Virus record (IMG/VR): IMGVR_UViG_3300049919_000418
Coordinates: 86,928-150,927 of that record
Strand: one strand, 5' to 3'
DNA length: 64,000 nt
Source of the DNA: a virus
Taxonomy: Duplodnaviria > Heunggongvirae > Uroviricota > Caudoviricetes
Shown piece by piece: positions 3,079 to 61,449 of this stretch (the first letter of the stretch is position 1; each line of letters begins with the position of its first letter). The position numbers and the translations under genes are program-made. The notes under the pieces are model-generated. The model had not been told where the DNA came from. It did not search any database and worked only from the letters and a program-made list of their open reading frames with translations.

Positions 3079-3351
3079 TTACGGAAGGGCGGCCCCGATC
3101 CGCTCCATCAACGCCGAGTAGTCAACACCCTTCCCCAACGTGAAAAGAATCAAAAGTGTGACATATATTAGATCCGTTGAGAAACCCGGCGTCTGTTGCC
3201 ATGACAAGGTGAACTTGTGTGGCTCTTCTGCTTCGGAATCCGGGTCAACATCCAGTAAAAGGCCATTCGACTCCAGACCTTTTGGGGTCTTGGTATAATG
3301 GCGACTCTCCTTCTTTAATCCCTCAACAAGCTTTGTAACTACGATATGCAT
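3079..3351 (-). CDS. hypothetical small protein (cassette-like ORF between repeat copies)
   Basis: 90-aa ORF; its ATG lies inside the duplicated 79-bp block (MHIVVTK...). Confidence 0.3.
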   Translation of the reverse strand: MHIVVTKLVEGLKKESRHYTKTPKGLESNGLLLDVDPDSEAEEPHKFTLSWQQTPGFSTDLIYVTLLILFTLGKGVDYSALMERIGAALP

Positions 3352-3403
3352 ATGAAAAACGTGATAATGAAAAATGATGGCTCTGAAAATTCTCTGGCGA
3401 ACG
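3325..3403 (+). repeat. direct repeat unit 2 (copy of 2751-2829), truncated at the AAC heptamer and followed by a degenerate GC-rich attC-like dyad (3404-3480)
   Basis: identical 79-bp block; sequence switches to GC-rich right after ..GGCGAACG; downstream CACCGGCC..GGCCGGTTG dyad with one extra T. Confidence 0.8.
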
Positions 3404-3475
3404 CAAGAGCGCTGGCACCGGCCACGCTGGAGCCTGAAATCACGAGCGACGTTATGGCCGGTTGACCAAACGACA

Positions 3476-3856
3476 ATGAAAGTAAACTACAACGCCGGAA
3501 CACTGGAAATCGACATGCACTCAATCCTTCAGGACGTGTCGCCAGAAAAGAAAATCGAAATGCTCGAAAGCCTCGCGTGTGATGACGCGATCATCAAGCA
3601 CGTCGCTGCCCAGATCATCGACCGATGGACGGAGAACTCATGCTCGGGAGGATCGAACTGCACGATCCCCGCCGATGCATCACGAGGCACGCCGCTGGAC
3701 GAAGCATGGCGACGGGTCGCGAAAGCATCGGGGGATGTAGCCAAGGATCAAATCGAGCGACTGGAACGCGGCCTTGCTCAACGTGATGAGCAGATCACGA
3801 AGCTGCATGAGCAAATCCGCGAGATGGTCGAACGTCGCAAGTCCATTCTCAGATGA
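3476..3856 (+). CDS. hypothetical protein (GC island)
   Basis: ATG at 3476 in frame of ORF-track 3374..3856. Confidence 0.45.
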   Translation: MKVNYNAGTLEIDMHSILQDVSPEKKIEMLESLACDDAIIKHVAAQIIDRWTENSCSGGSNCTIPADASRGTPLDEAWRRVAKASGDVAKDQIERLERGLAQRDEQITKLHEQIREMVERRKSILR

Positions 3857-3951
3857 CGACAAGGATCTGGCGCGGCGGGCGCTGGACTCCGAATAAACCA
3901 ACAAGGCAGCTCCCGCCGTTGCCAGCATCCACTTGTCAGCCTTTCTTAATT

Positions 3952-4200
3952 ATGACGACCGACGAACTGCAAAGCCAGCTCAACGCGACATGGTGCCGCG
4001 AACAATCCGCCGATGATGCCCACGATACAGTATGGGGCGAGCCGTTCGACGGCGAAACCGTGCGAATCTCTGACATCGCCGAAATCATCGACAAGCCGGA
4101 CTACACGAACCCCGAGGGAATGGTGCGCCGACTCCGCGAGGCTATTCAGGCTAACGACAAAAGTGCTGACACCGGCAGTGAAAGGAGCGCGAATGAGTGA
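3952..4200 (+). CDS. hypothetical acidic protein (GC island)
   Basis: ATG at 3952 in frame of ORF-track 3853..4200. Confidence 0.4.
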   Translation: MTTDELQSQLNATWCREQSADDAHDTVWGEPFDGETVRISDIAEIIDKPDYTNPEGMVRRLREAIQANDKSADTGSERSANE

Positions 4201-4477
4201 AACTGAAAAGCTAGTGCCGGTTGGCCAGCCACGACTTGTTCGGCCTTTTTCGTTCGAGTATCTCGGCGACTTCTCCGCAACTCCAGCGTGGGCTTCGCGC
4301 TCCATGCAGTGCGAAAGCTGCCGCGTATCATGGACGGGATGCTGGGATAACTTCCAGTGCCCGAAATGTGGCGAAGGTGATCTCCCGTCAGCCGACATGG
4401 AAGTGCTACTAGCTGGGTGCGCGGGGGTCATGGCTAAACTTGAAGCGTGTGGAAAATCTCTGCCGAGAACGAAATAG
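4193..4477 (+). CDS. Cys-rich zinc-ribbon-like protein (GC island)
   Basis: AAGGAG SD 6 nt upstream of ATG 4193; CESCRVSWTGCWDNFQCPKCGEG. Confidence 0.5.
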   Translation: MSETEKLVPVGQPRLVRPFSFEYLGDFSATPAWASRSMQCESCRVSWTGCWDNFQCPKCGEGDLPSADMEVLLAGCAGVMAKLEACGKSLPRTK

Positions 4478-4513
4478 CCCAGACGCGGGCGCGAAAAGGA
4501 AAGTAAATGACAC

Positions 4514-5116
4514 ATGGAAACTAACCACACAGTGGGCCACGTTGGATGGTCCCCAGACTATAAAAACACGCAGATGCCGCCCGTGACTGGAAAGCTAATT
4601 GCCCGTCGATCTGCGGCGGCTTGTTCGGCATCTTCATGGTTGCCCATTGAATCCGCTCCCCGTGACGGATCACGGATCTTGGTCGTGATGGGCGGAATTG
4701 TGACGCTGGCCCGCTGGAACGACCAAAAACATCACGCCAATCCGAAGCCTTACTGGTGCGCGGTGGATCAAATCTCAGTGACCCGAGATCGCGAAAATCA
4801 ACCGTCTGTTTGGATGCCTCTTCCATCTCTGCCGAACCCGATCAAGCTCATGGACGCCGACCCTAAATCTCCGCTTCAAGAAGGACGCTCCTCGGCGTTC
4901 CATGCAGCGTCTTGTTCTGTGTCTTTGGATCTGCGCTTGGCGGACTGCACGGAACCCGGATGGTATTTCTTCTATCCATCAGCTCAGAATAAATACGAAT
5001 GCGAAAAGTTCGTTAAAATCGACCAAGACGCTATTGATGACGGCTGGCTCCGATGCAGGAAATACGCAGGAACCTACATGGGGCCGATTACTCCACTATC
5101 TCTGCCGAACGCCTAG
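4514..5116 (+). CDS. DUF551-like repeat protein (GC island)
   Basis: two W..IE.AP.DG..ILV / W-rich units typical of phage DUF551 as recalled; 200-aa ORF. Confidence 0.35.
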   Translation: METNHTVGHVGWSPDYKNTQMPPVTGKLIARRSAAACSASSWLPIESAPRDGSRILVVMGGIVTLARWNDQKHHANPKPYWCAVDQISVTRDRENQPSVWMPLPSLPNPIKLMDADPKSPLQEGRSSAFHAASCSVSLDLRLADCTEPGWYFFYPSAQNKYECEKFVKIDQDAIDDGWLRCRKYAGTYMGPITPLSLPNA

Positions 5117-5154
5117 CTCTCCCGTGGAGGAATAATCACTAACGACTCAACAAA

Positions 5155-5493
5155 ATGAAAAACGAAAACGAAGCGAAAAACGTAGATAAACAGGTGACTT
5201 CCTCCCATCGTGAGGAGCGTCTTGTTCGGCTTCTTACGTGGCTCACAGGACGGAAACCTCGTAATACGAGGAAAGACTGGAAACAGGGGGATGCGATATT
5301 CCTTAAACGCTATCCTGCCGCGATCTGGGAATACGCACCAACGGGCGATTTCTTCTCGCTCAAAATTCATGTCGTAGCATCGCCAAATGTTATTCACCGG
5401 GGACTCCAGCGAGTCGCATTTGGCGTGCGCTACCGTCTTCTGCCGAACAGAGTGTTATCACAATCCGGAAGTGTTGATAACCGACGACCTTAA
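5155..5493 (+). CDS. hypothetical protein (GC island)
   Basis: 112-aa ORF. Confidence 0.35.
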   Translation: MKNENEAKNVDKQVTSSHREERLVRLLTWLTGRKPRNTRKDWKQGDAIFLKRYPAAIWEYAPTGDFFSLKIHVVASPNVIHRGLQRVAFGVRYRLLPNRVLSQSGSVDNRRP

Positions 5494-5899: not shown

Positions 5900-5970
5900 A
5901 GAGGATTGGTGTAATGGCAGCACCGGAAATTTTGAATTTCTTAGTCAAGGTTCGAGTCCTTGATCCTCTG
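5900..5970 (+). tRNA. tRNA-Gln(UUG) candidate
   Basis: manual fold: acceptor AGAGGAT/ATCCTCT, T-arm CAAGG-TTCGAGT-CCTTG, anticodon loop TTTTGAA. Confidence 0.5.
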
Positions 5971-5975
5971 CATAT

Positions 5976-6047
5976 GGAGCGTTCGTATAGTGGTTATTAC
6001 CCTAGCCTGTCGAGCTTGTGAGAGGGATTCAATTTTCCTACGCTTCG
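5976..6047 (+). tRNA. tRNA-Asp(GUC) candidate
   Basis: manual fold, 72 nt: acceptor GGAGCGT/ACGCTTC (one G-U), T-arm AGGGA-TTCAATT-TTCCT, anticodon loop CTGTCGA. Confidence 0.45.
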
Positions 6048-6182
6048 CTTAAAAAAACAAAAATAAACGTTGACTTATTTGAGAAATTGGATAGTATAAC
6101 GACATCGTTGGAGAGAATCCGGCGACAAAATTCAAACTTAAGGAGGGTGCGAAAGCGGTCAACTTCTTCTGTTTGAATTAAA

Positions 6183-6255
6183 CAGGGTATAGTGTAACTT
6201 GGTAGCACGGGACGTTTGGGACGTTCTGGTTTCAGTTCAAATCTGAATACCCCGA
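6183..6255 (+). tRNA. tRNA-Pro(UGG) candidate
   Basis: manual fold: anticodon stem GGACG/CGTTC loop TTTGGGA, T-arm TTCAG-TTCAAAT-CTGAA. Confidence 0.45.
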
Positions 6256-6444
6256 CCGTTAAGTAAAAATAACATAGAGTTCAAACATAACGAGTGCGAG
6301 GGAGTAAGAAAACCCGCTAATTTTGGAAATTAGAGACACTAGGAGCATTACCTAGGCATTCGACGTAATCAATAGTATAAATGTATTATAGCGCCCGAAA
6401 GTGGGTTGAAGATGCGGGCTTTGCACCCCGATTGATTATATTTA

Positions 6445-6516
6445 GCTCTCGTCGTCTAGTGGCTAGGACGCCGGTCCTTCAAATCGGAGAAGACGGGTCG
6501 GAACCGTTCGGGAGCA
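6445..6516 (+). tRNA. tRNA-Glu(UUC) candidate
   Basis: manual fold, 72 nt: acceptor GCTCTCG/CGGGAGC, D-loop TAGTGGCTAG, anticodon stem CCGGT/ATCGG loop CCTTCAA. Confidence 0.45.
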
Positions 6517-6714
6517 CATATGGAACATGTTCCAACAAATCGAGAGAAATCTCAGGTAGCAACAAAGCATCTTTATTGGTGTCGATGGTGCGACGGTGAT
6601 CTTGTTGGAAATCATGGGAAGTGTGGGCGTTGTAATAGACGGCAATATAGTAAAAAAAGAAAAATAAAATAAATAGGTCGGTGTCTCCAAACGGAATCTG
6701 TAAAATTCCCGTCT

Positions 6715-7620
6715 TTAAACACTTGGAAAGTTGACATGAGGTGCGTTACCTCCACTGGCCACATTAGAATTTAATTTCTGCCAATATCCCCTTGGGGGTT
6801 TATTGAGTGAATGTTTCTTACAGAATTTGCCTATAGCAGAGTCGGAAACGCCAAGATCTTTGGAAATACTTACAGTTGTCTTTTCAAATAAAAGTTTTTG
6901 CATTTCAAACGGACTCGGCCAAATAGCTTTAGTTTTTTTCATTTTACTGTTTTCTTTAAATCGAATTAATGGGTTTTCTTTCATAATTTTCTTTACACGA
7001 ATATGAAAATTTCTGTCGTAACTAATGCCAAGATAACAATCGAGATGCGATTTGGACGTTACTATCGGGATCGTTTCTTTTATTTGCTCATCTGAGAAGT
7101 TCTTGGTTTTATAATTGCGACCCTCTTGAAATTTGTTTTTGCCTCCGAAAGTGTCGGTTTGAGAGTGGCAGTTTGGACAAAGAAAGCAAAGATTTTCGAT
7201 ACGGTTGTCGTTATTGACACCATTTTTATGCTCTAATTGTAAAACTAATGATGTCCCCATCCAATTTCCAGAGTTTTTGCATTTTTTACAACATTGTTCA
7301 ATTAAATTAAATTTTATTATATTCAATTTAATTGATTGCCTATCTTTTTGACAGTTTTCTACAAGAAACTCCGTGAGGAATCTTTCTTTCGTTATTTTTC
7401 GTGCGAAAACAGAGGATTCGGTTCTGGACATTATGTGAGAGGTATCGAGAGAAAGTTCTTTGATTCTATTTTGAATGTTTTTTGAAATTCCGCCGACATT
7501 CTTGACACCAAAAAAGTCTGAGATATCTTTCATCCTTTTACTGGATGACACTAATTTTACAAATTCTTCGTCAAGGATTGAATAAATAATTGATTTTTTA
7601 ATTTTCATAGTATAAAACAT
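6715..7620 (-). CDS. HNH homing endonuclease with C-terminal helix-turn-helix
   Basis: CPNCHSQTD HNH-type motif; C-terminal ISKDLGVSDSAIGKFCKKHS HTH-like; minus strand among plus-strand genes as typical for free-standing homing endonucleases. Confidence 0.55.
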   Translation of the reverse strand: MFYTMKIKKSIIYSILDEEFVKLVSSSKRMKDISDFFGVKNVGGISKNIQNRIKELSLDTSHIMSRTESSVFARKITKERFLTEFLVENCQKDRQSIKLNIIKFNLIEQCCKKCKNSGNWMGTSLVLQLEHKNGVNNDNRIENLCFLCPNCHSQTDTFGGKNKFQEGRNYKTKNFSDEQIKETIPIVTSKSHLDCYLGISYDRNFHIRVKKIMKENPLIRFKENSKMKKTKAIWPSPFEMQKLLFEKTTVSISKDLGVSDSAIGKFCKKHSLNKPPRGYWQKLNSNVASGGNAPHVNFPSV

Positions 7621-7993
7621 TACACAGAAAGTGTGCTAACGAGAATTAATTTATTGACTTTTTATAAAATCAATTTAAAATGAACACAAAAGCCTCATTA
7701 GTAGAATGGATATAACATTTCGCTTCGAACGAAATAAAGGGGTTTCGATTACCTCATGAGGCGCATATGAAATATTGGCTTATTAAATGTCGCTACGAAT
7801 ATTGGTGTCAAGGTTACGAATGGACAACCGATACTTTTTTAGTTAAAGGAAAAACATTTAAAGCGGCTTGTGAGGTTTTAAAGGTGTCAAAGAAAAACGC
7901 CGAATGTTTCGAGAATATGACAATAGATTAACTTTCATCTTGACAAGATGGGCGAATCCTGTTAAGGTTCGCCCACTACAAATTAATTAATTA

Positions 7994-8644
7994 ATGAAAA
8001 AGAACTATACTCACATTTCAATGATTCTCGACCGCAGCGGTAGCATGACTTCAACTTGGAACGATGTTGTTGGCGGATATAAAAGCATGGTTCAGGAAAA
8101 CAAAGCTACGCCCGGAGATTGCACTTTCACATTGGCGGCATTCGATCATGAATACGAACTTGTTGAAGACTTTACCAATATTCAAAATGTTAATGATGGC
8201 TTGACGATCAAGCCAAGAGGTTCCACGGCATTGCTTGATGCGATTGGCCGCACTGTTGTTTCTGTTGGTGAAAAGCTTGCCAAGTTGAAGGAATCAGAGC
8301 GACCAGAAAAGGTTATTGTGGTTGTGAATACTGATGGGCAGGAGAACGCTTCTACAGAATTTAAAAGAGACGAAATTAAAACGCTAATTGAGGAGCAAAC
8401 CTCTAAATATAATTGGCAATTCCAATTCATTGGAGCGTCTTTAGATTCAGTAAAGGACGCCCAATCTTGGGGTTTTCAAGCCGCGAATACATCTGTGTAT
8501 GATACCAAAAACAGCGGGGATACATTTACGTTACTTGGAAGTAAAATGGCAGCTATGAGGTGCGCGTCGACTCCAGACGCATACGCAAAAGCCGCACAAT
8601 TTAGCGACGAAGATAAGGCAATTTTAAACGCATCAAAGATTTGA
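7994..8644 (+). CDS. von Willebrand factor A (vWA) domain protein
   Basis: MIDAS motif ILDRSGSM (DxSxS) and VVVVNTDGQEN. Confidence 0.65.
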   Translation: MKKNYTHISMILDRSGSMTSTWNDVVGGYKSMVQENKATPGDCTFTLAAFDHEYELVEDFTNIQNVNDGLTIKPRGSTALLDAIGRTVVSVGEKLAKLKESERPEKVIVVVNTDGQENASTEFKRDEIKTLIEEQTSKYNWQFQFIGASLDSVKDAQSWGFQAANTSVYDTKNSGDTFTLLGSKMAAMRCASTPDAYAKAAQFSDEDKAILNASKI

Positions 8645-8649
8645 TTTTG

Positions 8650-8891
8650 GATGGCCAAGTGGCGAAATGGTAAACGCGGCGGCTTCACGTTAAAAAAATA
8701 ATCCGCCATTGGCAAAATGGTAAAGCGCCACCTTAAGGGGGTGGATTTTCCCGATTCGAGTTCGGGATGGCGGACGGTAAGTGGTGAAATGGTAAACACC
8801 GGGCGGCAGTCCGTTTAGGGTTCGATTCCCTTGTTGGACCGCAAGGCGAAGCTAGTTTGGAACATTGCCCGTTCGACTCGGGCCTTACCAA
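8650..8891 (+). other. second tRNA-like cluster with three tandem D-arm-like units (GG[CT][GA]AAATGGTAAA[CG][GA]C) and two T-arm-like hairpins; may include pseudo- or intron-containing tRNAs
   Basis: units at about 8661, 8712, 8783; GGTTCGATTCC and GCCCGTTCGACTCGGGC T-arm-like motifs; boundaries not resolvable by eye. Confidence 0.4.
8703..8774 (+). tRNA. tRNA candidate (72 nt) with unusual anticodon loop TTAAGGG (apparent AAG)
   Basis: acceptor CCGCCAT/ATGGCGG perfect 7 bp; anticodon stem CCACC/GGTGG; T-arm CCCGA-TTCGAGT-TCGGG. Confidence 0.45.
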
Positions 8892-9636: not shown

Positions 9637-10344
9637 ATGAGACAAGAAATTTTGTATGGTGATTGTCTTGAGCTATTAAAAAATATCCCCGACAAGTCAA
9701 TCAATTTCATCTGTATTGATCCGCCATACGGTTTAACTGCCCCGAAATGGGATTCTATTGTTTCTTTTGATTCTTTATGGAAAGAGTTTGATAGAATAGG
9801 TAAAAGCGGATATGTTGCGGCTATTTTCGGCTGTCAGCCATTTACAACCAAAGTTATTTCTTCAAACATAGACGAGTTTAAGTATTGTTGGTATTGGAAT
9901 AAAAACCAAGGAACAAATTTCTTTCATGCCAAAAGGATGCCAATTAGAAAAGTCGAAGAAATATCTATTTTTGGCGGCAAAACATATAATCCACAAATCA
10001 CAGACGGACATATTCCTACCAATTCTGCGAAAGGATGCTCAAATGGAAAAGCATATCATGGAACCAATACGCGAGATTATGAAGGTGGGAAAACGACCCG
10101 ATTCCCTGATAACATATTAAATTTTAAATGCGTAGATAATTATTCGAGAGTTCATTCTAGTCAAAAACCCGTAGAACTTTTGGAATATCTTATTAATACA
10201 TATACTAACGAAAATGATGTAGTTTTGGATTGTTTTGTCGGTTCTGGTTCAACTTTAGTTGCCGCTAAGAATTTAAATCGCCAGTTTATCGGCATTGAAA
10301 AAGAAAAAGAATATTATGATATTTGCCTAGAAAGACTAAAATGA
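9637..10344 (+). CDS. DNA methyltransferase (N6-adenine/N4-cytosine family)
   Basis: CIDPPYG (DPPY catalytic motif) and LDCFVGSGST (SAM-binding FxGxG); AAAGGAGG SD upstream. Confidence 0.75.
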   Translation: MRQEILYGDCLELLKNIPDKSINFICIDPPYGLTAPKWDSIVSFDSLWKEFDRIGKSGYVAAIFGCQPFTTKVISSNIDEFKYCWYWNKNQGTNFFHAKRMPIRKVEEISIFGGKTYNPQITDGHIPTNSAKGCSNGKAYHGTNTRDYEGGKTTRFPDNILNFKCVDNYSRVHSSQKPVELLEYLINTYTNENDVVLDCFVGSGSTLVAAKNLNRQFIGIEKEKEYYDICLERLK

Positions 10345-10516
10345 TTCTCCGCGCCTATAAAGTCCAACTAGATGTTAATAGCAAGCAACAAACCTTGTTG
10401 TTACAACATATTGGTTGCGCCAGATGGTCACATAATTGGGCATTGGCTAAAAAGAAAGAATCTTTCGACAAAACTACAAAAAAGGCTTCAGAATATATTA
10501 ATCAATACATTCGGGG

Positions 10517-13502: not shown

Positions 13503-14150
13503 ATGAATACTATTGAATCGCAAAAAGCACGCATGCCCTATCTAACTCAGGAAAACGCGGATGCCGCGCTCAAAGGATTGAAAAGTATTGCGGATCAATT
13601 AGACCTAACTGCAATTGCGAATGAAGTTCTTAACAACGAGGATTTTGTTGTTTGGACGGGCGCGGCGAAACCGGAAAGTCATCATTACGGAAAGTTTGGA
13701 TTATTACTTCATACTTATGAAGTTTATTTGAATGGAGTAATGATTATGGATGTTAATCAATCCCGTTATGGGTTTGATAAGCTTGATTTGCAAGAGTTTT
13801 TCCTTTCCGCGTTATTTCACGACTACGGAAAGATTTTTGACTACAAAAACACTAGCTATATAAGTGGTCATGGAGAGTATGCCACTTGGGTCGACCGATG
13901 GGGTTCAGCAGATCATAGGAGGAAAATTCATCATATTTCCCGCTCCGCTCTTTTCTTTTCGGAGGTTGCAAAGAAACGCGGTTTGCCGGAAGACTTGATA
14001 GATCGTGTGTTACATAATATTTTGTCCCATCACGGATGCCGCGCCTATGGCAGTCCGGTATCTCCAAACACGCGAATCGCTTGGATTTTGCACCTTAGCG
14101 ATATGGTTAGCGCACGCCTTTACGATTGCGATACTTTAGATAGGTTTTAA
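13503..14150 (+). CDS. HD-domain phosphohydrolase
   Basis: LLLHTYEV ... LFHDYGK (H..HD motif); ATG 13503 within ORF-track 13467..14150. Confidence 0.55.
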   Translation: MNTIESQKARMPYLTQENADAALKGLKSIADQLDLTAIANEVLNNEDFVVWTGAAKPESHHYGKFGLLLHTYEVYLNGVMIMDVNQSRYGFDKLDLQEFFLSALFHDYGKIFDYKNTSYISGHGEYATWVDRWGSADHRRKIHHISRSALFFSEVAKKRGLPEDLIDRVLHNILSHHGCRAYGSPVSPNTRIAWILHLSDMVSARLYDCDTLDRF

Positions 14151-15176
14151 TGGATAAATTCCCAATCTTTGTGTCGCCCTGATTTCGGGTTTTTCTTATT
14201 AATAAAACATTGATTCATAAATCCATTAGATAACCCATGTTTTCTGCAAAACTCCGAAAGGTTTGTCAGTTCAAAAGTTTCTCCGGTTGGTTTATGGTAA
14301 ATGGTTGAAATCCTGTCTTGGGTTTCGAATTCATTTAAATTTAATATAAATTTATTGTATTTTCTCTCAAGTCTTATTTCCGGGGTTGAATCTTTGTAAA
14401 TCCATTTTAAGAAATTTGAAGAGTCTTTTCCCAAATTTAGATAAAAAATATTTTCAGCGGGCTTAGCGAAGATTTTTTCTGTTGAAATACCTAATTTGGA
14501 TAGATAGTTTTTAATAAAACCCACACAAGATTGTGAGTTAATTAAATTAACTTTAAACCAAATTCTTTTTTTAACGGGAGAAACCTTAACGTAAATACTC
14601 CCGTCACCGTCGTAAAGACCCCTAACGAAATGAGAGTAATATTTTTCCTCAATACTTGGAAAGATAAAAACCTTTGACTTGTTTTCGTCAACACCGTGAT
14701 TTTTAATATACTGGCAAAACTCTTTGGAGTTTACTTGTATTTCACACGAATAATTCGTTTTTTTGGTCCTATCGTCAAAATTAGCCCTTTCTGCTACCGG
14801 GCTTCCAGAGTTGATAGCCCTTTGAAAATCCAAAAGAATTTTTTTTGTCTGTTGATTTAAGTTGAAAAGACAGCTTATATCCGCTTTTGTGAATACATCC
14901 GTCTGCCGCAATAAAACCAAGCCAATAAGCTTTTTCATTTGAATCGATATTTTTAAAATAATCAACATTAAGGGAGACTTTTCTGAGGGAGACGACAATT
15001 CCGTTATTTTTTAAAGTCTTCTTTATCCTCCCAACCGTAGTTTTAAACTTTTCTCTAGTTTCCGATAGTTTTCCGCACAGCAAATAATGCTTGACAACTT
15101 CCGATTCTTCATATATAGGTTTGCTCATACAGTATAAGTTGCACCACAATGGATCAAAAAAGAACAAATAATGCAA
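14147..15176 (-). pseudogene. LAGLIDADG homing endonuclease split into two overlapping frames (14781..15176 and 14147..14998)
   Basis: motif 1 WLGFIAADGCI in upstream ORF, motif 2 RGLYDGDGSIYV in downstream ORF; A8/T8 homopolymer at about 14838-14846 near the frame change. Confidence 0.55.
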
Positions 15177-19821: not shown

Positions 19822-20072
19822 TTATACCAAGAGATAAAATTGAAAAAGAATACGCCACCCTTTGGGATAAGGGGTATGAAGTCGGATATCGTTCGCGCCC
19901 GCATGCAGATCAATTCCTTCAAACAGAGTGGAATAAGCGCGTTGTTTACGGAAAAGAACCTTATTTCGAGTTCAAAGCGTGGGAAGCGGGATATTGGAGT
20001 TCGCGCAGGGATTGCTTTTGGGGTCTTGGAAGGTTTGATGAGTACGCAAATGACGAATACGACGATTGATTT

Positions 20073-20441
20073 ATGAGTAATGATTTCTATCCGGACGATT
20101 GGAGCCCGAAGCTTGGGCAAGAGAAATCTATTCCAATTGAAAGAATAACAAAAAGAATTAGCCGCGCCAGTGGCAAACCCGGAATTGATTGTTTTCGCGG
20201 CACATTGTTTGGCAATCCTTTTACAAGTATTCGGGGCAAAAAAACGAAGGCCGAATTTATTGTTGATTCACTTGATGAATGTCTTGACAAACACAATATT
20301 TACTTTATAAATCGGGTTGAGACAGACGAGATTTTCAGAAAAGCCGTGCTTAACCTGCGCGGAGAGTCGTTAATTTGTTATTGTCGTGAAAGTGCGCGTT
20401 GCCATGTGGATAACATAATTGAGTGGATCGAAAATAATTAA
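20073..20441 (+). CDS. DUF4326-like protein
   Basis: GTLFGNPF ... CYCRESARCHVD as recalled for DUF4326. Confidence 0.35.
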   Translation: MSNDFYPDDWSPKLGQEKSIPIERITKRISRASGKPGIDCFRGTLFGNPFTSIRGKKTKAEFIVDSLDECLDKHNIYFINRVETDEIFRKAVLNLRGESLICYCRESARCHVDNIIEWIENN

Positions 20442-34318: not shown

Positions 34319-34794
34319 AATTCCCAACTTGCAGTAAATTTGGCCAACGCCATTGGATTGTTAATTGTTTTATCGAGGTTGAACTTGATAAAGCATTAAA
34401 AAACCTTGTTTTTGATTTCGGCGACACCGAAAAACAATTAACGCGCAAGCAAAAAAACTCAATGATTCGCGCCGCGAAAACTCATTTGGTTCGTAAGTTG
34501 GTTTGCGATACGCTTGCAGAGTGGCGCGAACGATTTCCTGATATTGGGTGCGGGCCAATTAAAATTCGGCGCTACGGGATAGAATATATTTACATGCGCA
34601 GTCCGGTAACATTTCTTTATGAGTGGCGGCGGAATAATTGTCTTGATGAGTCGTTCGCTCCTAATTACTGTGAGTCACTACGAATGATAAAGCTCTTTAC
34701 TCAGGCACTATGGAATAAGCATGAGGAAAACGTTGGGCTTGAATTTGCCGAAAGAAAAGCAAGGATTGAAAGAGCATATCAAAATTTTAAATAA
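34315..34794 (+). CDS. hypothetical protein
   Basis: 159-aa ORF. Confidence 0.4.
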   Translation: MKFPTCSKFGQRHWIVNCFIEVELDKALKNLVFDFGDTEKQLTRKQKNSMIRAAKTHLVRKLVCDTLAEWRERFPDIGCGPIKIRRYGIEYIYMRSPVTFLYEWRRNNCLDESFAPNYCESLRMIKLFTQALWNKHEENVGLEFAERKARIERAYQNFK

Positions 34795-35482
34795 TCTTGC
34801 TAACAAAACTATGCACTCTCTTTATCCACTCCAGCCATTCATTAAGGGGTAAGGTTGATTTAGAATTGTTGCAAATTTTACAACACGGAACGCAGTTGTC
34901 GGAAACATAACCAATTTTATTGTCAACTCTATCCACGCCATTATGAAGAAACTCCTCTTTCACATGCTTTAATCTATTGTTGTCCTGAAGTGAATTTTCA
35001 AGGCCGCAATAGTGACAGGGCTTTAAAATTATTTCTTTAAATTGCTCTAACGTTAACTCAAAATCATATTTCCTTCTAAGGGCAGCGGATTTATAATTTT
35101 TGTAAATTTTATTTAAAGCAGAAACACCAAATCCCTTGTAAACTCTTTCTGACATTTTTTCTTTTGCCAAGCAACCACACGAAGCGTGTTTTCCGTTTTT
35201 AAGAGAGGAGCTATGGGCGGTTGTATAGCTCCCGCAATCACAAAGACATTTGTATCCAGCGTATCTTCCTTCGTTTTTCTCAACGACTGTTAACCTACCA
35301 AATTTCTGACCAATAAAGTTTTTAACTTTCGAGTGGCACGCGCCTTTAGAACACGAAGAAATCTTTCCCGAATCAACTTTATACTTTACAGCCGAGAATT
35401 TTCGTCCACAATCACACAAGCATTCGCAATAAAGGGCTTTCCCGGTTTTAAAATTTTTTTGAAACTCTTTTAATACTTTCAT
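34787..35482 (-). CDS. HNH homing endonuclease (HNH_3-type)
   Basis: GVDRVDNKIGYVSDNCVPCCKICNNSK matches D-R-I-D-N..GY..NC..CC..CN HNH pattern; minus strand. Confidence 0.65.
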   Translation of the reverse strand: MKVLKEFQKNFKTGKALYCECLCDCGRKFSAVKYKVDSGKISSCSKGACHSKVKNFIGQKFGRLTVVEKNEGRYAGYKCLCDCGSYTTAHSSSLKNGKHASCGCLAKEKMSERVYKGFGVSALNKIYKNYKSAALRRKYDFELTLEQFKEIILKPCHYCGLENSLQDNNRLKHVKEEFLHNGVDRVDNKIGYVSDNCVPCCKICNNSKSTLPLNEWLEWIKRVHSFVSKII

Positions 35483-47695: not shown

Positions 47696-48757
47696 ACGAT
47701 ATGAATTGGGTTAAAAGCAAAGAAGACGTTAAAAAGTTGAATAAAATTCACTTTGCGGCGTTAAAATTCATCACGATGGCAACGCCGGGGTTATGATGCG
47801 GCGACCCAATTGACTACACTGAAGTTCGCGAGTATATTGCTTTTGCCGATGAAGCGGAAATGAGCGGGTGGGCCATCAATCAGGAAATGCCTAAGCATGG
47901 TAGCCCAATAAAAATTATATAATCATCCGGTCTGAGCTTCTTGAGGTTGAAATCAAAACAAATATCGTTATTAAGTGACTAATAGATCTAAATTTATTGT
48001 ATTTCGGGATATTGATGATCCAGAAATCCAAGTATGTCTTGACAACGGGGAAAATGTTGTTATAGTTTTGGGCAAGGAGCACTTCGAGATGAAATCGCGG
48101 TATAATTCACTTGGGATCTTTTTGAGTTTACATGATTTTGGAAGAGACGATTGCATTTACGGAAAACACCTTTCGCGGGACTGCGAAGATATTGAAACAT
48201 TTTTAAAATTAGCAAAACAATACTTAGGATTATGATCGACGCGCAAGACGCCAAAAGAATGGCAGACGAAAAACTGGCGATTAGTTGGGTGGAAGTAAAA
48301 TAACATGAAAACATTTTATCGGGTTTGTAATCCAAACACTCAGCAAGGACTTTGGTATGATTTTGAAGGTAATTTTACCGGATTGATTCATGACAAATTT
48401 TCTTTTTGCGCAAATTCAGAACTGGAAATGGATTTCGATCCTGAATTGGTGGGTTGGTTGTCCGCTACGGATAATTACCCCGATCTTTTAAAATGGTTTC
48501 CAGAAAAAGACATTTTGGAGTTGCAAAAAGATGGTTGGCATGTTCACACTTACGAAACCGAAAATTACAGGCTTTACGAGAGATTCCAACATTACGTGAT
48601 TTGTCAAAAAACAAGTCGGCTTGTTGATAGGCTATTGATTATGCCTCAAAATGAAAAACAAATGGAAAATAATAACATCCGCGCCTTGTTCAGCTCTTCG
48701 GGGGTGGAGTGAAAATAAATGATTTAAAATGTTGACGTTAATCAAACTGTAAAATAG

Positions 48758-48805
48758 GGTCTTCTCAGTTGCAGCACGAAGCGCAACCCAAACAACCAAA
48801 TCAAA
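48758..48805 (+). promoter_or_regulatory. conserved island leader GGTCTTCTCAGTTGCAGCACGAAGCGCAAC + A/C-rich spacer + ATG (copy 1)
   Basis: near-identical to 58319..58365; contains hairpin GTTGC-N-GCAAC. Confidence 0.6.
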
Positions 48806-49099
48806 ATGAAAATCAACCGCACCACTAACAGTATCGCCGCCGCCACCGAAATCCTTGACTGGCTCAATGACCGCGCAGAGCGGGGAATCCAAGATCCCGT
48901 CATCAGCGTCCGCGATGGCGACCTCCTGTTTTACAACGCCGCCTGTGGCATTCAGGACGACGAGACTGTCCTCATCGAACGTGCCGAGCAAGATTCATTC
49001 GGGATGGGATGGGGTGATGCCGAGGCCACAGCCGAGGACGTGCTGGCATGGATCGAAGGCAACTGTGAACCGCAAGAAGGGGAGTTCGAGGATAACTGA
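48806..49099 (+). CDS. hypothetical acidic protein (GC island 2)
   Basis: 97-aa ORF, GC-rich codons. Confidence 0.45.
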   Translation: MKINRTTNSIAAATEILDWLNDRAERGIQDPVISVRDGDLLFYNAACGIQDDETVLIERAEQDSFGMGWGDAEATAEDVLAWIEGNCEPQEGEFEDN

Positions 49100-49108
49100 A
49101 ATCCAAGG

Positions 49109-49351
49109 ATGAAAAATGAACCAATGAAATACGAAGCTCAAATAAACGCCGCGCTTGATCACATCTTCAGAGGCATGGAGAAGCCGTGGATGGATGACGA
49201 TGACAAACGACAAATCCGAGAAGAAACGCTAGCCCAAATGGCCAGTCAGGGCGCAACGAAAGAAGTGATGAATGCACAGATCGAAGAAGGGGTGAAGAAT
49301 GGATACAGCGTCGAACGTCAACTGGCGATCATTCGAGAGTTCCTCTGCTAA
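49109..49351 (+). CDS. hypothetical protein (GC island 2)
   Basis: 80-aa ORF. Confidence 0.4.
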   Translation: MKNEPMKYEAQINAALDHIFRGMEKPWMDDDDKRQIREETLAQMASQGATKEVMNAQIEEGVKNGYSVERQLAIIREFLC

Positions 49352-49394
49352 CGCTGAGGTATCCCACGGGGATAGCGAAAAAAGACCATGAATG

Positions 49395-49480
49395 CAAAAC
49401 CGACTCCGCCGCTATCCCCGTTAGAGCACGCGCCGCCGCCGTTGAGTGGCGAGGCGAGGTTTACGCGAATACCCTCTCTT
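49395..49480 (+). repeat. degenerate attC-like fragment (GAGCACGCGCCGCCGCCGTTGAGTGGCGAGG)
   Basis: matches the left arm of B-type copies (compare 57560-57600). Confidence 0.4.
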
Positions 49481-54865: not shown

Positions 54866-56138
54866 TGTTTACTGAAAACTTTCACGATTACGATTTCTCA
54901 GGACGGCACGGACTTGTTGTTAATATAAATTATGGACATAAGGAGGGCGCGGAAAAAATAGCGCAAAGCATGAAGGATGGGGGTTTTTGCGAAAACGATG
55001 TTGAATTTATTTTCAACCCTAAACCCGATATTTGGATCTACGTTTGGCCCGATGGTGTAACAGTAGATATGCCTAACATTATTGGGGTTGCTTCAAGATT
55101 CCCCCAATATTGGCGCGTCGAAACCCTTCACAATTACATTCGAAATGAATCCAAACAATAAAAAGTTAGTTAGCCCGAAACCTTCATGCCTCAACGCTTA
55201 TCAAATCACCTGCGAGAATTCGCTTGACGAGTTTTTAACGAATGAGGTGAGAGAGTTCGATTCAATTCATAAAACGGGAAAGTTTGTAAAAGTTAGCTTT
55301 GGCGGCAAGAAACTTTTTAGTTTTGAATTTGGGGAATGGTTAGTTGTCTTTTCTGACAACAATATTAAAAATTACAACAACGATGAACTCTTGGAAAACT
55401 TTACTTTTGTGGTTTAATCTCAGGAAACTGATCAGGTCGAGGGCGAGATACCTTCGTCTTATTTCAGGTATGGAGAATACACATTTTAAATCAAAATGCG
55501 ATCTTCCGGAATTGTTGGAAGCAACCATTAATACGCGCAAAACCTACCAACAAAATGCGATTGTGCTTGACGGACAGGGGTTTCACAAAATTTCAGATCA
55601 ATTTACGATTCTAAAGGAAGTCACACGAGACATTGAAGCAATTATAAGAACTTGGACAGAGGGGGACGAAACAGATGGCGACCGAAACATTACTTGAAAT
55701 CTGCCTTTTTGGCGGCGCGGCAGACGGCGCGACAGCCGCAATTGAAAATTGCAAAGAAAGAGTGAGGATTGGAACAAATCAATATTCCGACAGTTTTTTT
55801 GTTGACAAGGATGGGCGGGCAATCTATTACGCAAGCAAAGGACCGGGAAGGCTTACTCCGGGATATATTAAAAAGCTATTTAAAGAAGATTAAATCATGA
55901 TTCGCTGGAAAAACAAAAACAAGGAATTCAGGAAAGCCTTGGACGAGGAAGAGATTGAGGAAGCGTTGATGCCATTTCGCGCCCAACTTCAAAGACTCGC
56001 CGAGGAAAACAAGGGGGTTAAGGGCTACAGCGTTAAAGTTGCGTATAGGGAAACGCGGGCAGTTCTTTTGGAGGAACTGAGGATTAATTTTGCTTTACTG
56101 GATGCGGCGGCGTACGAAGAGAATATTTTGATTAAAAA

Positions 56139-56280
56139 ATGAAAACTAATAAAATTGGAGCGGCAGCCCCTCTTGAATCTCTGCCGAACGTCAAATGTCC
56201 GCCCACGGGCGCGAACAAAAAGGAGATTGAACCGCAACAGGAAAGCTTATCGCCCGTTGGTACGCGACAGCTTGTTGTGC
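56139..56280 (+). repeat. attC-like repeat A1 (leader 56139-56182; 98-bp core 56183-56280, GCCGAAC...GTTGTGC)
   Basis: core identical in length and near-identical in sequence to A2/A4/A5. Confidence 0.65.
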
Positions 56281-56862: not shown

Positions 56863-56865
56863 AAT

Positions 56866-57016
56866 ATGAAAACTAATAAATTAAAATTAAACGCCGCCGA
56901 AAAGGAATCTTCGTTTCTGCACAACGTCAAATGTCCGCCCACGGGCGCGATTGAAAAAGTGGTTGAATCGAAACAGGAAAGCTTATCGCCCGTTGGTGCG
57001 CGACAGCTTGTTGTGC
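56866..57016 (+). repeat. attC-like repeat A2 (leader 56866-56918; 98-bp core 56919-57016, GCACAAC...GTTGTGC)
   Basis: fills the entire gap between two minus-strand ORFs. Confidence 0.7.
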
Positions 57017-57058
57017 CTTCTTCATTTTCTTCTGTGGGTGGAACTCCATACACAATGC

Positions 57059-57535
57059 TCATGGGGATACAGGGAGCGCAAAAACAAGGTCGGTTATTCG
57101 AATCGCCTCTGGACCCTCTAAGGGGAAAGAATCTTTCACTGTTTGGCGTCCCTCCCCATTGCCTTCTTCGCTATACTTCGACAAAAGGTGAACCTGTCCC
57201 TCCCGAACATCATCTACAATCCATCCGTGACATGATGAACCATCACGGTTCAAACAATACAAACCAACTATTCGTCCCGACTTCAGTTCTTCTTGAAGAC
57301 GGTCGAGAAATGATTGGCCTGTGGATTGATCGTGGATCTGGAAATGTAACCCCTCAATATCTTGGTCACGAAAATGCGTTAAGCCCACGTTCTCGTCCCG
57401 ATACTTATGCTGAAGATCGTAGAAACCCATCGGCACCTTCTCATATGCCTTCAGAATCATCTCAATCAACGACGGCGAGCATGAAGCAAGATACTTTTGG
57501 TGGTGCTGGTCAACAACTTGAGAGATTGGAATCAT
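57059..57535 (-). CDS. hypothetical protein (array cassette ORF)
   Basis: ORF-track 57059..57574 trimmed to internal ATG (MIPISQ). Confidence 0.4.
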   Translation of the reverse strand: MIPISQVVDQHHQKYLASCSPSLIEMILKAYEKVPMGFYDLQHKYRDENVGLTHFRDQDIEGLHFQIHDQSTGQSFLDRLQEELKSGRIVGLYCLNRDGSSCHGWIVDDVREGQVHLLSKYSEEGNGEGRQTVKDSFPLEGPEAIRITDLVFALPVSP

Positions 57536-57647
57536 TGGAGTCTTCGTTTCTGCACAACGTCCCAGAGCACGCACCGCCGCCCCTGAGTGGCGAGGGCGTT
57601 GAAACTGAACCGCTTATGGGCGGTTGTTGTGTCTCGCCTTGTTCGGC
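57531..57647 (+). repeat. attC-like repeat B2 (partial leader; 96-bp core 57552-57647, GCACAAC...GTTCGGC)
   Basis: B-type middle GAGCACGCACCGCCGCC..GGCGGTTGTTGTGTCTCG. Confidence 0.65.
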
Positions 57648-57748
57648 TTCTTGTCTTCGACTGGAGATTGTTGATTCAAAAGACGGCGCAGCGATAACAT
57701 GGGTAGAGATAAAAGTAGGGGCGATAAGCCGTGAAACGGTGAGAATGG

Positions 57749-58096
57749 TTAAGGCGTTCGAAATTCTACTTCGTGATCTCCAATATAAGGAGGCAAAGTC
57801 CCGCCCCAATAGCTCGGTATATCTTCTTCAGGTTGTGTGGCCAGATGGATCGCGAAGTCCTTCACAATCTCTTGCAGAGTGGACAGCGGAACTTGAAGGC
57901 GAGCTTCGCTAAAACTCAATGTCTCTGTCGCTAATACGTTGTCGAAAATATCCACGATGATGTTCCTCGCTTGTAAATACTCGCGGAACTTCCAAACGAG
58001 GGCTTCTGGACCAATACAGGAAACGCCATCTACGTTTTCTTTGGGTTCCAGCTCTTCTTTGATTGCTTTGGCTTCTGTTATTTCTCGTTGTGTCAT
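57749..58096 (-). CDS. hypothetical protein (array cassette ORF)
   Basis: 115-aa ORF with ATG. Confidence 0.45.
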   Translation of the reverse strand: MTQREITEAKAIKEELEPKENVDGVSCIGPEALVWKFREYLQARNIIVDIFDNVLATETLSFSEARLQVPLSTLQEIVKDFAIHLATQPEEDIPSYWGGTLPPYIGDHEVEFRTP

Positions 58097-58109
58097 AAAT
58101 AAAAATAAT

Positions 58110-58245
58110 TAAATGAATAGTAATAAAATAAACGGCGCGGCAGCGCCTCTTAATATTCTGCCGAACGCTGAGCCCATCCGCGCCGGGGTGGACTCCGCTT
58201 AAAACAATACGGCTTATCGGCGTCGGATGCGGCGTCTTGTTCTGG
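58110..58245 (+). repeat. divergent attC-like repeat (leader ATGAATAGTAATAAAATAAACGGCGCGGCAGCGCC; 86-bp core 58160-58245, GCCGAAC...GTTCTGG)
   Basis: same terminal heptamer pair and GGCTTATCGG centre; dyad ATCCGCGCC/GGCGTCGGATGCGG. Confidence 0.55.
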
Positions 58246-58318
58246 GTCTTTTTGAGCTCGGAAAAGAAAGTGAAAATAAATTGAAATAGTGCTTGCGGAA
58301 AATCAAACCGTGAACTAA

Positions 58319-58365
58319 GGTCTTCTCAGTTGCAGAACGAAGCGCAACTGAACCAACCAAACAAA
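58319..58365 (+). promoter_or_regulatory. conserved island leader GGTCTTCTCAGTTGCAGAACGAAGCGCAAC + spacer + ATG (copy 2)
   Basis: near-identical to 48758..48805. Confidence 0.6.
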
Positions 58366-58821
58366 ATGCAAACCATCAAAATCCTCGCCATCGTCAAAAC
58401 CGGAACCACCGAGTCTCTGATGCGCGTCCCTCAAGTCACCGTCCGCGAGGATGGAACTCTCTGGGCCAACAACAACACGATGCCGCTCACCAATAGCAGC
58501 GGCACGCTGAACAAGGACAGCCTCCTGCCACTGATGACCGCCAAGGCATGGGACAAGATCCCCGCCGATAACTTCCTCCGCCTCGGGGTCAATCCGGGAG
58601 AAAAAGAAGCCATGGACGACAAAGACGTGGACGCCCGCCGCATCGACAGCCGGACACCGGAAGAAAAAGCAGCACACGCCGCAGCAGCGGACCGCGCCAA
58701 GAAAGCGCGTCAATACGACCTGATCCACAATGAGGGCGGAGAAGGCTACAACCCATACCGCGATCAAGCTGAAATGGTCGATAACACCCCATGGATGAAG
58801 GGCGACGACCAAGCCGACTGA
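58366..58821 (+). CDS. hypothetical protein (GC island 3)
   Basis: ATG 58366 in frame of ORF-track 58330..58821; GC-rich. Confidence 0.45.
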   Translation: MQTIKILAIVKTGTTESLMRVPQVTVREDGTLWANNNTMPLTNSSGTLNKDSLLPLMTAKAWDKIPADNFLRLGVNPGEKEAMDDKDVDARRIDSRTPEEKAAHAAAADRAKKARQYDLIHNEGGEGYNPYRDQAEMVDNTPWMKGDDQAD

Positions 58822-58850
58822 AACTCAAAACCCCAACAGAAATCACGAAA

Positions 58851-59075
58851 ATGAAAACGATAAATCTCAAGCACAGCCTCGCCAGTGGAGGAAATCTCAT
58901 GCCACAGCAAGCAGGCGCAAAGCCCGGCTATCGCAACGGCTGCATGCCCGCATGGCTCGACAACGTGGACGCATCGCAGGCCGGGAAGAATCTCTACCGC
59001 GCCGAAAACCTCACAGAAAACCAGCTCGCCACCGTACCAGACTGGTATCGCGAAAAATACTGCCAACCCTCATGA
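58851..59075 (+). CDS. hypothetical protein (GC island 3)
   Basis: ATG 58851 in frame of ORF-track 58791..59075. Confidence 0.4.
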   Translation: MKTINLKHSLASGGNLMPQQAGAKPGYRNGCMPAWLDNVDASQAGKNLYRAENLTENQLATVPDWYREKYCQPS

Positions 59076-59261: not shown

Positions 59262-59365
59262 TTCTCCCCAGAACGTTAAATGTCCGCCCACGGGCGCGAA
59301 CAAAAAGGAGGTTGAACCGCAACAGGAAAGCTTATCGCCCGTTGGCGCGTGACGCCTTGTTAGCC
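59262..59365 (+). repeat. attC-like repeat A3 (no conserved leader; 98-bp core 59268-59365, CCAGAAC...GTTAGCC)
   Basis: starts 2 nt after the RHH stop; GC island occupies the position of the usual leader. Confidence 0.65.
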
Positions 59366-61435: not shown

Positions 61436-61449
61436 AAACCGTAATTAAA

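Follow-up and report, generated by a model that had tools for sequence, protein, structure and literature searches.

Three GC-rich islands in a T4-like phage genome as probable integron-type gene cassettes at attC-like sites

A stretch of phage DNA of 64,000 nucleotides (positions 86,928 to 150,927 of the IMG/VR virus record IMGVR_UViG_3300049919_000418; hereafter the window) carries three islands of high guanine-plus-cytosine (GC) content, which lie next to repeats that resemble the attC sites of integron gene cassettes. The backbone of the window is that of a large virulent phage, with its genes nearly all on the + strand. GC content recomputed along the window is not uniform. The backbone has a mean of 0.407 (standard deviation 0.027, maximum 0.484 in 900-bp windows), and the islands stand out from it with 0.556 (3404–5140), 0.535 (48758–49480) and 0.567 (58319–59260). 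The islands had been recognized in a first-pass annotation made from the sequence alone; the GC content of 58–60% noted there is reached only in 400-bp sub-windows. As described in that annotation, the open reading frames (ORFs) of each island are co-oriented on the + strand. There are two to four ORFs with an ATG start per island, with a GC content at third codon positions of 0.53–0.72.

An rIIA-like ATPase gene adjoins a gene of the Pfam family Phage_T4_rIIB, and a gp63-like RNA ligase is present; on these grounds the phage is T4-like. The window also contains genes for NAMPT, RNA and DNA ligase, Thy1 and NADAR. An identical rIIA-like protein is found on a 166-kb contig, and a search of IMG/VR gave no relatives of this protein. 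No close cultured relative of the phage was found, NAMPT being at most 50% identical. Contigs L011–L017 (L numbers denote contigs) are collinear with the window, 99.9–100% identical to it and derived from at least five samples, and therefore the islands are not assembly artefacts. That nothing was acquired, the islands being native genes of deviant composition or an assembly chimera, is extremely improbable. The GC content of phages does vary locally, and the array region as a whole is slightly raised, to about 0.46. The islands, however, lie 5–6 standard deviations above the backbone, identical junctions were assembled independently in at least five samples, and close homologues (88% nucleotide identity, 90–93% protein identity) occur in high-GC genomes with different flanks.

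The islands contain the following genes.

3476–3856, + strand: island 1 ORF1, 126 residues, coiled-coil phage protein (phrog_32847, E 6e-11)
3952–4200, + strand: island 1 ORF2, 82 residues, no family match, coding score 0.62
4193–4477, + strand: island 1 ORF3, 94 residues, CxxC...CxxC zinc-ribbon-like motif (weak match to Pfam Zn_ribbon_6, E 0.014)
4514–5116, + strand: island 1 ORF4, open frame of 200 residues through sites at 4532–4630 (weak) and 4829–4921
48806–49099, + strand: island 2 ORF1, 97 residues, 93% identical to a protein of the high-GC phage contig L057
49109–49351, + strand: island 2 ORF2, 80 residues, only the first five codons (MKNEP) in common with the ribbon-helix-helix (RHH)-like gene of L057
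58366–58821, + strand: island 3 ORF1, 151 residues, conserved N-terminal domain of about 100 residues; model with a predicted local distance difference test score (pLDDT) of 81
58851–59075, + strand: island 3 ORF2, 74 residues, with a protospacer inside at 58970–59003
59072–59260, + strand: island 3 ORF3, 62 residues, candidate RHH regulator, with a protospacer inside at 59210–59243

Distant homologues of island 1 ORF1 occur in Pseudoalteromonas, Yersinia and Vibrio phages. The RHH fold had already been suggested for island 3 ORF3, and a match to phrog_876 (E 4.5e-4) points the same way; the assignment is weak, with Pfam RHH_1 missing its cut-off at E 0.037. The AlphaFold2 model of this protein contains an extended segment followed by two helices (pLDDT 71). 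It gave no PDB match by sequence profile or by fold, the model being a single-sequence one and the PDB profile uninformative. Island 3 ORF1 gave no PDB or BFVD match, and none with Foldseek despite its confident N-terminal model. The hint that the island genes are toxin-antitoxin-like found no support. No toxin domain was found and no toxin family was matched among the island genes in Pfam, PHROGs or PADLOC, and the RHH-like gene is the last of its operon. With the RHH-like gene last, the layout resembles that of a regulator of the type found in operons of anti-CRISPR (acr) and anti-CRISPR-associated (aca) genes more than that of an antitoxin.

The repeats of the window fall into two main sequence families, A (about 100–135 nucleotides) and B (about 99 nucleotides), with divergent copies in addition. 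A covariance model, R1, was built from 12 sites of the window, and its matches there are to be read with the caveat of same-window training. It gives 16 matches (E ≤ 0.04), which together with several weaker or decayed sites are situated at three loci. Further sites are found by R1 at 3849–3942, 4829–4921, 58158–58246 and 59803–59918, all on the + strand, of which the first three are known to lie outside the training set, and R1 also detects sites in the independent contigs L056, L057, L005, L006 and L009. All sites of the window are co-oriented on the + strand. They form arrays at about 2.8–5.5 kb and from 56 kb to at least 64 kb; island 2 stands apart as a single insertion whose sites are decayed. 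The sites and site remnants at the islands are given below, where ↓ marks a junction.

3322–3405: near-identical duplicate (82 nucleotides) of 2748–2831, the minus-strand 5' end of a cassette, ending GGCGAAC↓G (repeat family D8)
3393–3470, + strand: partial attC-like site opening island 1, with R' box CTGGCGAAC, spacer and stem GGCACCGGCCA/TGGCCGG-T-TG, without a 3' R'' box; weak model match at 3416–3464
3849–3942, + strand: attC-like site inside island 1, covariance model E 6.8e-8, not among the training sites
4147–4245, + strand: B-like attC-like site, its loop containing the ATG of island 1 ORF3
4829–4921, + strand: attC-like site with aadA7-type geometry (6 bp, T, 6 bp, C, 3 bp, 5-nucleotide spacer, GTTCTG), model E 1e-4
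5102–5226, + strand: site-like palindrome ending island 1, CTGCCGAAC GCCTAGCTC...CGTCTTGTTCGG, with the same 5' half after island 3 on L056; not detected by R1
48674–48694, + strand: deleted remnant of an X-type site upstream of island 2, AAC ATCCGCGCC↓TTGTTCAGC, compared with the intact site at 4841–4928 of L057
49343–49495, + strand: decayed sites closing island 2, with 5' box CTGCTAAC and 10-bp stem GGGGATAGCG/CGCTATCCCC, then a B-type 5' half at 49423–49454 (family D5)
58158–58246, + strand: X-type site of the island 3 cassette, CTGCCGAAC, GCTGAG, CCCATCCG-CGCCG / CGGCG-T-CGGATG-C-GG, GTCTT, GTTCTGG; model E 1.3e-5
59266–59366, + strand: A-type site, part of the adjacent cassette; the window and L056 cease to be homologous exactly at its AAC, CCCAGAAC↓G (59272–59274)

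All three islands adjoin repeats, and they are discrete modules at repeat sites, as the first-pass annotation had it. The proposed start of island 1 at a repeat cut at its AAC is correct, as the identity of the 82-nucleotide block ends exactly at GGCGAACG. The degenerate dyad reported after this point is also present, and it is in fact an attC-like site too, one without a 3' box. Three or more additional sites divide island 1 into units of 200–400 nucleotides. Island 3 is indeed sandwiched between repeats, namely the covariance-model matches at 58158–58246 and 59266–59366. The repeat fragment that follows island 2 is the B-type one at 49423–49454; the internally deleted remnant on its left, at 48674–48694, had been missed. 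In the gene at 48305–48712, the match to phrog_23161 covers only residues 2–112 of 135, and the last 23 or so codons derive from the decayed attC-like remnant. Cassette insertion appears to have lengthened this ORF, to judge by its sequence.

The lengths of the sites run from 58 nucleotides (in L005) to about 135 nucleotides; attC sites range from roughly 57 to 141 nucleotides. On the + strand the sites have a common architecture, which consists of TTCTG..AAC, a 6–7-nucleotide spacer, a 15-bp stem, a variable loop, an interrupted return stem, a 5-nucleotide spacer and CTTGTT... The return stem is broken by single unpaired bases in all site types. The + strand corresponds to the bottom strand of attC, with AAC (R') first and GTT (R'') last. 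AAC and CTTGTT do not vary in any of the 15 aligned sites, and the R boxes read GCACAAC, GCCGAAC or GGCTAAC, close to the RYYYAAC rule for the outer box of attC (PMC5027507). Across an alignment of 12 sites, pairing in the inner (L) helix reaches 95%, compared with 30–54% in slid controls, and 8 of its 15 pairs are changed on both sides. Only about half of the cells pair at the four outer box positions, a result to be expected if this part of the box comes from the cassette next to it.

With positions numbered from the + strand 3' end, there is a 7-nucleotide box, a 5-nucleotide spacer, 3 bp and then an unpaired base at position 16. The A and B types have extrahelical bases at positions 16 (T or C), 20 (T) and 24 (T), and the X type (58158) and the site at 4829 have extrahelical C16 and T23. 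In the bottom strand of attC, the extrahelical bases are located on one arm, at position 16, optionally at 20, and then at 23 or 24, where the base is a conserved T; VCR2 has G16, T20 and T24, and aadA7 has G16 and T23 (PMC5027507). Several features by which attC sites are recognized were found here: AAC and GTT boxes, spacer and extrahelical bases, a conserved structure with a variable loop, and boundaries at the R box. The integron analogy that had been drawn for these repeats is therefore apt, given their canonical attC geometry and junctions at or beside the AAC box.

The + frame through the sites is not kept, with 1-nucleotide indels in two B-type copies and an in-frame TGA in two A-type copies, so the sites are probably non-coding. 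An N-terminal peptide encoded in common by the repeats was ruled out, as the frames differ among copies and stops are present in two. Miniature inverted-repeat transposable elements, or selfish palindromes like the Rickettsia palindromic element, are unlikely in view of the compensatory changes and the attC geometry. Searches of IMG/VR with the A-type core, the B-type core and a gapped pattern of the X-type site gave no matches.

Between the sites of the 56–64 kb array, a fitting minus-strand ORF is present in 10 of the 10 spaces. The + strand ORFs at 62830–63393, 4514–5116 and 56866–57912 run through attC-like sites, and for the first two of these there is coding potential on both sides of the site in the same frame. 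For the sites at 62481, 62998 and 63542, the gene caller of the Joint Genome Institute in each case has a + strand ORF that runs across. Such sites may lie within genes, or the genes may begin just past them. Sites that are crossed by + strand ORFs with coding potential on both sides do not agree with a simple rule of one ORF and one attC. Island 1 ORF4 may be a fusion of cassette ORFs, two or three in number. At 10850–10962 of L005, 4520–4636 of L057 and 4147–4245 of the window, the downstream + strand gene has its start codon within the variable loop of an attC-like hairpin. AT-rich blocks left of the sites are found at 56863–56916, 61447–61495, 63491–63539, 63952–64000, 2696–2731, 56131–56190 and 58108–58167 (families D6, D7, D9, D12 and D13). 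Read on the minus strand, such blocks are the 5' ends of cassettes, and they resemble GTTTAA-17-TCATAT promoters just before an ATG.

The same cassettes were found in other contigs. L056, a 1.6-kb contig from an unrelated run, carries the island 3 unit, with a first gene that is 90% identical at the protein level and with the same leader and promoter region. The stem of its X-type site is rewritten with compensation, from CCCATCCG-CGCCG/CGGCG-T-CGGATG-C-GG to CTATGACA-CGGCG/CGCCG-T-TGTCAT-C-AG, and the unpaired T and C are retained despite this. The homology between the window and L056 starts at TCTTAAT.TTCTGCCGAAC, 19 nucleotides left of the AAC of the X-type site, and on the right it ends exactly at CCCAGAAC↓G. 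To the right of island 3, the window has the A-type site and L056 a site of the type found at 5102 of the window; the left neighbours are different minus-strand genes. In attC terms, island 3 is one cassette that spans from the crossover in the site at 59266 (59272–59274) to its own site at 58158–58246, with its three genes antisense. The genes of the islands are antisense to the canonical cassette orientation.

Contig L057 (GC content 0.577) comes from the same sample series as the phage of the window and is identified as phage DNA by a major head protein (phrog_283, E 2.7e-5). It contains an intact X-type site, near-identical to 58158–58246 of the window, ahead of the island 2 leader and first gene, and the nucleotide identity to 48681–49106 of the window is 88%. 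Its island-2-like unit ends with an RHH-like gene that resembles the one of island 3. At 5925–5950 of L057, the cassette ends TCTGCTGAAC TAG TTGTTCG, with R' and R'' boxes back to back and without stems; this may be an empty site, a recombination scar or an attI/attG-like target.

For island 3 ORF1, 31 homologues were recovered, and no match was found among cultured phages. One homologue lies between head genes on L009, a phage contig of 49 kb that encodes terminase, portal and capsid; others are present on L005, a 57-kb phage-like contig, and on L055, which has an SU10-type portal. The GC content of these three contexts is 53–57%. Short attC-like sites adjoin the homologue in L005–L009, and a stretch of 11 T comes after the one in L005.

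Islands 2 and 3 share a leader and the region preceding it, with the following features.

48709–48760, + strand: island 2 promoter region, GTGAAAATAAAT, putative -35 TTGACG (48732–48737), 17-nucleotide spacer, putative -10 TAGGGT (48755–48760)
48758–48805, + strand: island 2 leader, GGTCTTCTCAGTTGCAGCACGAAGCGCAAC, palindrome GTTGC (48768–48772) / GCAAC (48783–48787), A/C-rich spacer without a Shine-Dalgarno sequence
58270–58321, + strand: island 3 promoter region, GTGAAAATAAAT, putative -35 TTGCGG (58293–58298), 17-nucleotide spacer, putative -10 TAAGGT (58316–58321)
58319–58365, + strand: island 3 leader, palindrome CAGTTGC (58327–58333) / GCAACTG (58344–58350)

The 30-nucleotide motif reported for the two islands is present in exactly two copies at up to three mismatches, with none expected from shuffled sequences. 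The stretch in common is in fact about 100 nucleotides long, from GTGAAAATAAAT to the ATG (family D11), and the sequence of the promoter region is conserved in islands 2 and 3, L056 and L057. From its sequence, the stretch before the leader would be a promoter of the form TTGNNG, 17 nucleotides, TA(A/G)GGT, with GAAAATAAAT ahead of it. A consensus promoter scan did not list the putative promoters of islands 2 and 3, and the leader promoter may be of either the MotA-box or the sigma-70 type. The palindrome CAGTTGC-N10-GCAACTG begins 6 nucleotides after the putative -10. As RNA, the leader folds into a 5' hairpin with energies between -7 and -13.5 kcal/mol (z between -2.1 and -4.3), with -10.7 kcal/mol and z -3.5 for island 3. 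A Shine-Dalgarno sequence is absent from both backbone and island genes. No matches to the leader motif were found in IMG/VR. In L060 (60% GC), a variant of the leader is present at 2430–2510, where TTGAAA-17-ATTGTC is followed by TCCTCAGTTGC-ACGAC-GCAAC, and a second promoter-like region, GAAAATAAAT...TTGAAA, is located at 3200–3272. The promoter and palindrome module would seem to represent a widespread kind of early promoter in these high-GC phages.

A layout of promoter, palindrome and terminal small-regulator-like gene is seen in island 3, L056 and L057, the RHH assignment being weak. By analogy, it is plausible that the palindrome is, as DNA, an operator for the 62-residue RHH-like protein. 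The palindrome GTTGC-N10-GCAAC would then act as operator, as 5' RNA hairpin or as both, with the RHH-like protein from island 3 as the repressor of both operons. Since island 2 carries the palindrome without a regulator gene of its own, it would be controlled in trans. The RHH-type protein Aca14 recognizes an inverted repeat located at the -10, and neighbouring operons that carry the same repeat are under its control as well (bioRxiv 10.64898/2026.07.27.740549). The leader, a module of putative promoter and 5' untranslated region common to islands 2 and 3, fits the idea of co-regulated modules. By comparison with acr-aca operons, the cargo may consist of early accessory or anti-defence genes.

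Hairpins next to promoters are also the hallmark of promoter early stem-loops (PeSLs), and it is conceivable, if unlikely, that the islands are modules of this kind. The hairpins would then be terminators or RNA structures with early promoters, and the islands would be shuffled by homologous recombination with no integrase. This would suit a T4-like phage with arrays in variable regions beside rIIA/rIIB, and PeSLs are documented mediators of modular shuffling (PMC2839356, PMC4122927). It would also suit the promoter-like region of islands 2 and 3 directly after a hairpin and a short T-run, the 11 T after the site in L005, the position of all sites on the strand transcribed in the backbone, and the absence of an integrase among the genes found. 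The described PeSL consensus, however, is short (GN-loop-CN, A3-4G3-loop-C3T3-4), whereas the sites here are 58–135 nucleotides long with attC boxes, spacer and extrahelical bases. Most of them have no adjacent promoter, and the same site type is found in phages that are not T4-like. The junctions are not inside long homology either: one lies at the AAC, the second within about 19 nucleotides of it, and the 82-nucleotide duplicate ends at an AAC.

A metagenome scan with the leader returned only two contigs. Both are type I-C loci of clustered regularly interspaced short palindromic repeats (CRISPR) with a GC content of about 0.58–0.60, and in them the motif is a spacer. There are 77 unique spacers, and the only three with a match in the window target islands 2 and 3. 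The leader spacer matches 33 of 33 positions at island 2 (48755–48787), 30 of 31 at island 3 (58316–58349) and 31 of 31 on L056. The second spacer matches island 3 ORF2 (28 of 31; 58970–59003), and the third matches the RHH-like gene (33 of 34; 59210–59243). The protospacers are followed by GAA, which reads as a TTC protospacer-adjacent motif (PAM) on the opposite strand; in the case of the leader, GAA is present at island 3 and on L056 and absent at the island 2 copy. None of the 77 spacers matches the other 62 kb of the window or the sampled parts of the high-GC phages. If matches were spread evenly over the window, the chance of all three falling within those 1.67 kb would be about 2e-5. 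These matches indicate that the carrier of the array has met the cassettes. Spacers 69 and 70 of the L003/L004 arrays (numbered on the reverse complement of L003) contain the R'' box motif, ..GCGTCTTGTTAGCC.. and ..GTCTTGTTCGGC.., and match nothing in the window. Because of this motif, the same organism is taken to have acquired spacers from other cassettes of the family, and it has probably met cassettes on several vehicles.

The spacers with their PAM also argue against the islands being chromosomal DNA of the array carrier itself. Host-derived DNA, as proposed in the first-pass annotation, would make the islands fragments of a bacterial chromosome, for instance from a chromosomal integron. 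In its favour are the island GC content of 0.54–0.57, near the 0.58–0.60 of the CRISPR-array contigs, the classically bacterial nature of attC sites, and the two further spacers with the R'' box motif, by which the array organism met such cassettes. On balance we consider this origin very unlikely, since a cell does not normally keep spacers with a correct PAM against its own chromosome, and every context recovered for the island homologues is phage or phage-like, at 53–60% GC. In addition, island 1 ORF1 belongs to a phage protein family, and no bacterial genome is tied to the sites, the scan of genome collections having been made with the CRISPR repeat, which is taxonomically promiscuous. Among 377 genome-derived spacers with the same CRISPR repeat, none matches; as the repeat is spread over many phyla, it gives no host identity.

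Based on the site geometry, the junctions and the homologous units in other phages, the three islands are likely to be integron-type gene cassettes at attC-like sites, acquired horizontally from a phage-borne pool. They do not constitute a second type of element beside the repeats, as had been suggested. They would be cassettes of the same system, with inverted genes and a promoter of their own. Cassettes would enter the 40%-GC phage by site-specific recombination at AA↓C, with an integron integrase that is supplied by the host or encoded elsewhere in the genome. Their source would be a pool in high-GC phages of the same host community, and carriage by such phages would explain the composition of the islands. 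Because the island genes are antisense to transcription at the array level, the cassettes would bring, or depend on, their own promoter.

Several observations weigh against this interpretation. Among the matches listed for the 86 window ORFs, and in the 10 kb upstream, no member of the tyrosine recombinase (Phage_integrase) family was found, and no attI or Pc was identifiable. A complete integron, with intI beside attI and Pc, was not seen in these 74 kb of a genome of at least 166 kb, and the attC-like clusters are at most clusters of attC sites lacking integron integrases (CALINs). Position 16 of the sites is T or C in place of the usual G, the sole departure from attC geometry. Blocks of 50–70 nucleotides are conserved to the left of many sites; classical integron cassettes have only about 6 nucleotides in common at the cassette 5' end. 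The arrays also hold + strand coding potential, gene orientation is mixed, and some + strand ORFs cross sites. Island 2 has an internal breakpoint, at 49106, that does not coincide with a site, so recombination of another kind contributes to the islands as well. A second context was not found for the cassettes of island 1, and no variation in cassette content was seen among contigs L011–L017 of this phage, where apparent differences were only ones of gene calling. In Pfam, PHROGs, PADLOC, PDB and BFVD, the island cargo showed no relation to known Acr or defence families, and the promoter, operator and anti-defence roles suggested above are drawn from position and analogy.

A wider proposal, which we put forward tentatively and regard as doubtful, is a phage-to-phage exchange network. 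In such a network, attC cassettes with self-promoted, RHH-regulated early or anti-defence operons would move among T4-like, HK97-like and SU10-like phages of the same high-GC host, via the host integrase at co-infection or via a phage recombinase. If this is true, hyperplastic regions in a T4-like phage amount to viral integron arrays. Integrons are generally seen as devices by which bacteria capture genes, and the attC clusters described in phages have figured so far as small curiosities. Here, a lytic T4-like phage has at least 16 attC sites of canonical geometry at three loci, and individual cassettes can be traced across phages that are 15–20 GC points apart; viruses, and not only bacteria, appear to trade genes by a cassette system. 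If the sites are active, they would provide a testable mechanism for the spread of ORFan and anti-defence genes among unrelated phages, and they would explain how hyperplastic regions are built, with the module of promoter, palindrome and RHH gene as a portable expression unit. In practice, the leader motif and the boundaries of the cassettes can be used to mine phages for accessory genes.

Outside the islands and arrays, a tRNA cluster is situated at 5900–8775. ARAGORN identifies four tRNAs (Gln, Pro, Arg and Leu) and Rfam six, adding those at 5976–6047 and 6445–6516; the Rfam scan of the window gave only tRNAs. Three homing-endonuclease-like genes of low GC content (0.33–0.36) lie on the minus strand at 6715–7620, 14147–14998 and 34787–35482, and they are of the HNH (phrog_10822, E 1e-37), LAGLIDADG-like and EndoVII/HNH types. 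On L061, a precomputed annotation places a 59-residue HTH_OrfB_IS605 fragment at 19939–20118, which corresponds to about 10280–10459 of the window.

Sedentary chromosomal integrons contain promoter-bearing inverted cassettes, such as those encoding toxin-antitoxin pairs. The islands are similar to these in having genes antisense to the attC orientation, a putative promoter of their own and a small candidate regulator of RHH type. They differ in that no toxin domain is present, the RHH-like gene is last and not first, and the carrier is a phage. In Mu-like phages, acr loci lie between head-morphogenesis genes, and the homologue on L009 is likewise located between head-morphogenesis genes.

With the PeSLs (PMC2839356, PMC4122927), the islands share repeated hairpin-plus-promoter motifs by small ORFan genes, a location in hyperplastic regions of T4-like phages, and gene gain and loss. 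PeSLs are short, simple stem-loops recombined by homology, in contrast to the attC anatomy found here, with junctions at or next to the AAC box. The acr-aca operons with Aca14 (bioRxiv 10.64898/2026.07.27.740549) have a strong promoter, small genes and a terminal small RHH gene, and also an inverted repeat at the promoter, with the same repeat before a second operon that has no regulator. The putative promoter and candidate RHH gene of the islands would give a similar arrangement. The likeness is one of layout alone, and the repeat here is situated just downstream of the putative -10 and does not overlap it. Integrase-mediated insertion of cassettes outside att sites (bioRxiv 10.1101/2022.09.11.507474) would explain why single cassettes occur, island 2 being an example, and why those of L009 and L057 lie beside capsid genes, away from arrays.

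The closest precedent is provided by CALINs, defined by at least two attC sites, which have been reported in virulent phages and whose attC sites are recombined by IntI1 (Qi et al. 2023, PMC9892861). As in those phages, attC-type sites and cassettes occur here in lytic phage genomes without intI, and some of the reported clusters likewise have diverging site directions or several ORFs between sites. The present phage differs in its 16 model matches over three loci and in being a T4-like carrier. In addition, the same cassettes can be traced among unrelated phages of very different GC content, some cassettes share a promoter and leader, and they are targeted by CRISPR; the system here is known from sequence alone. 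Phage-borne integron cassettes are thus already known, and what is new is their scale, their traceable phage-to-phage distribution and the portable regulatory module.

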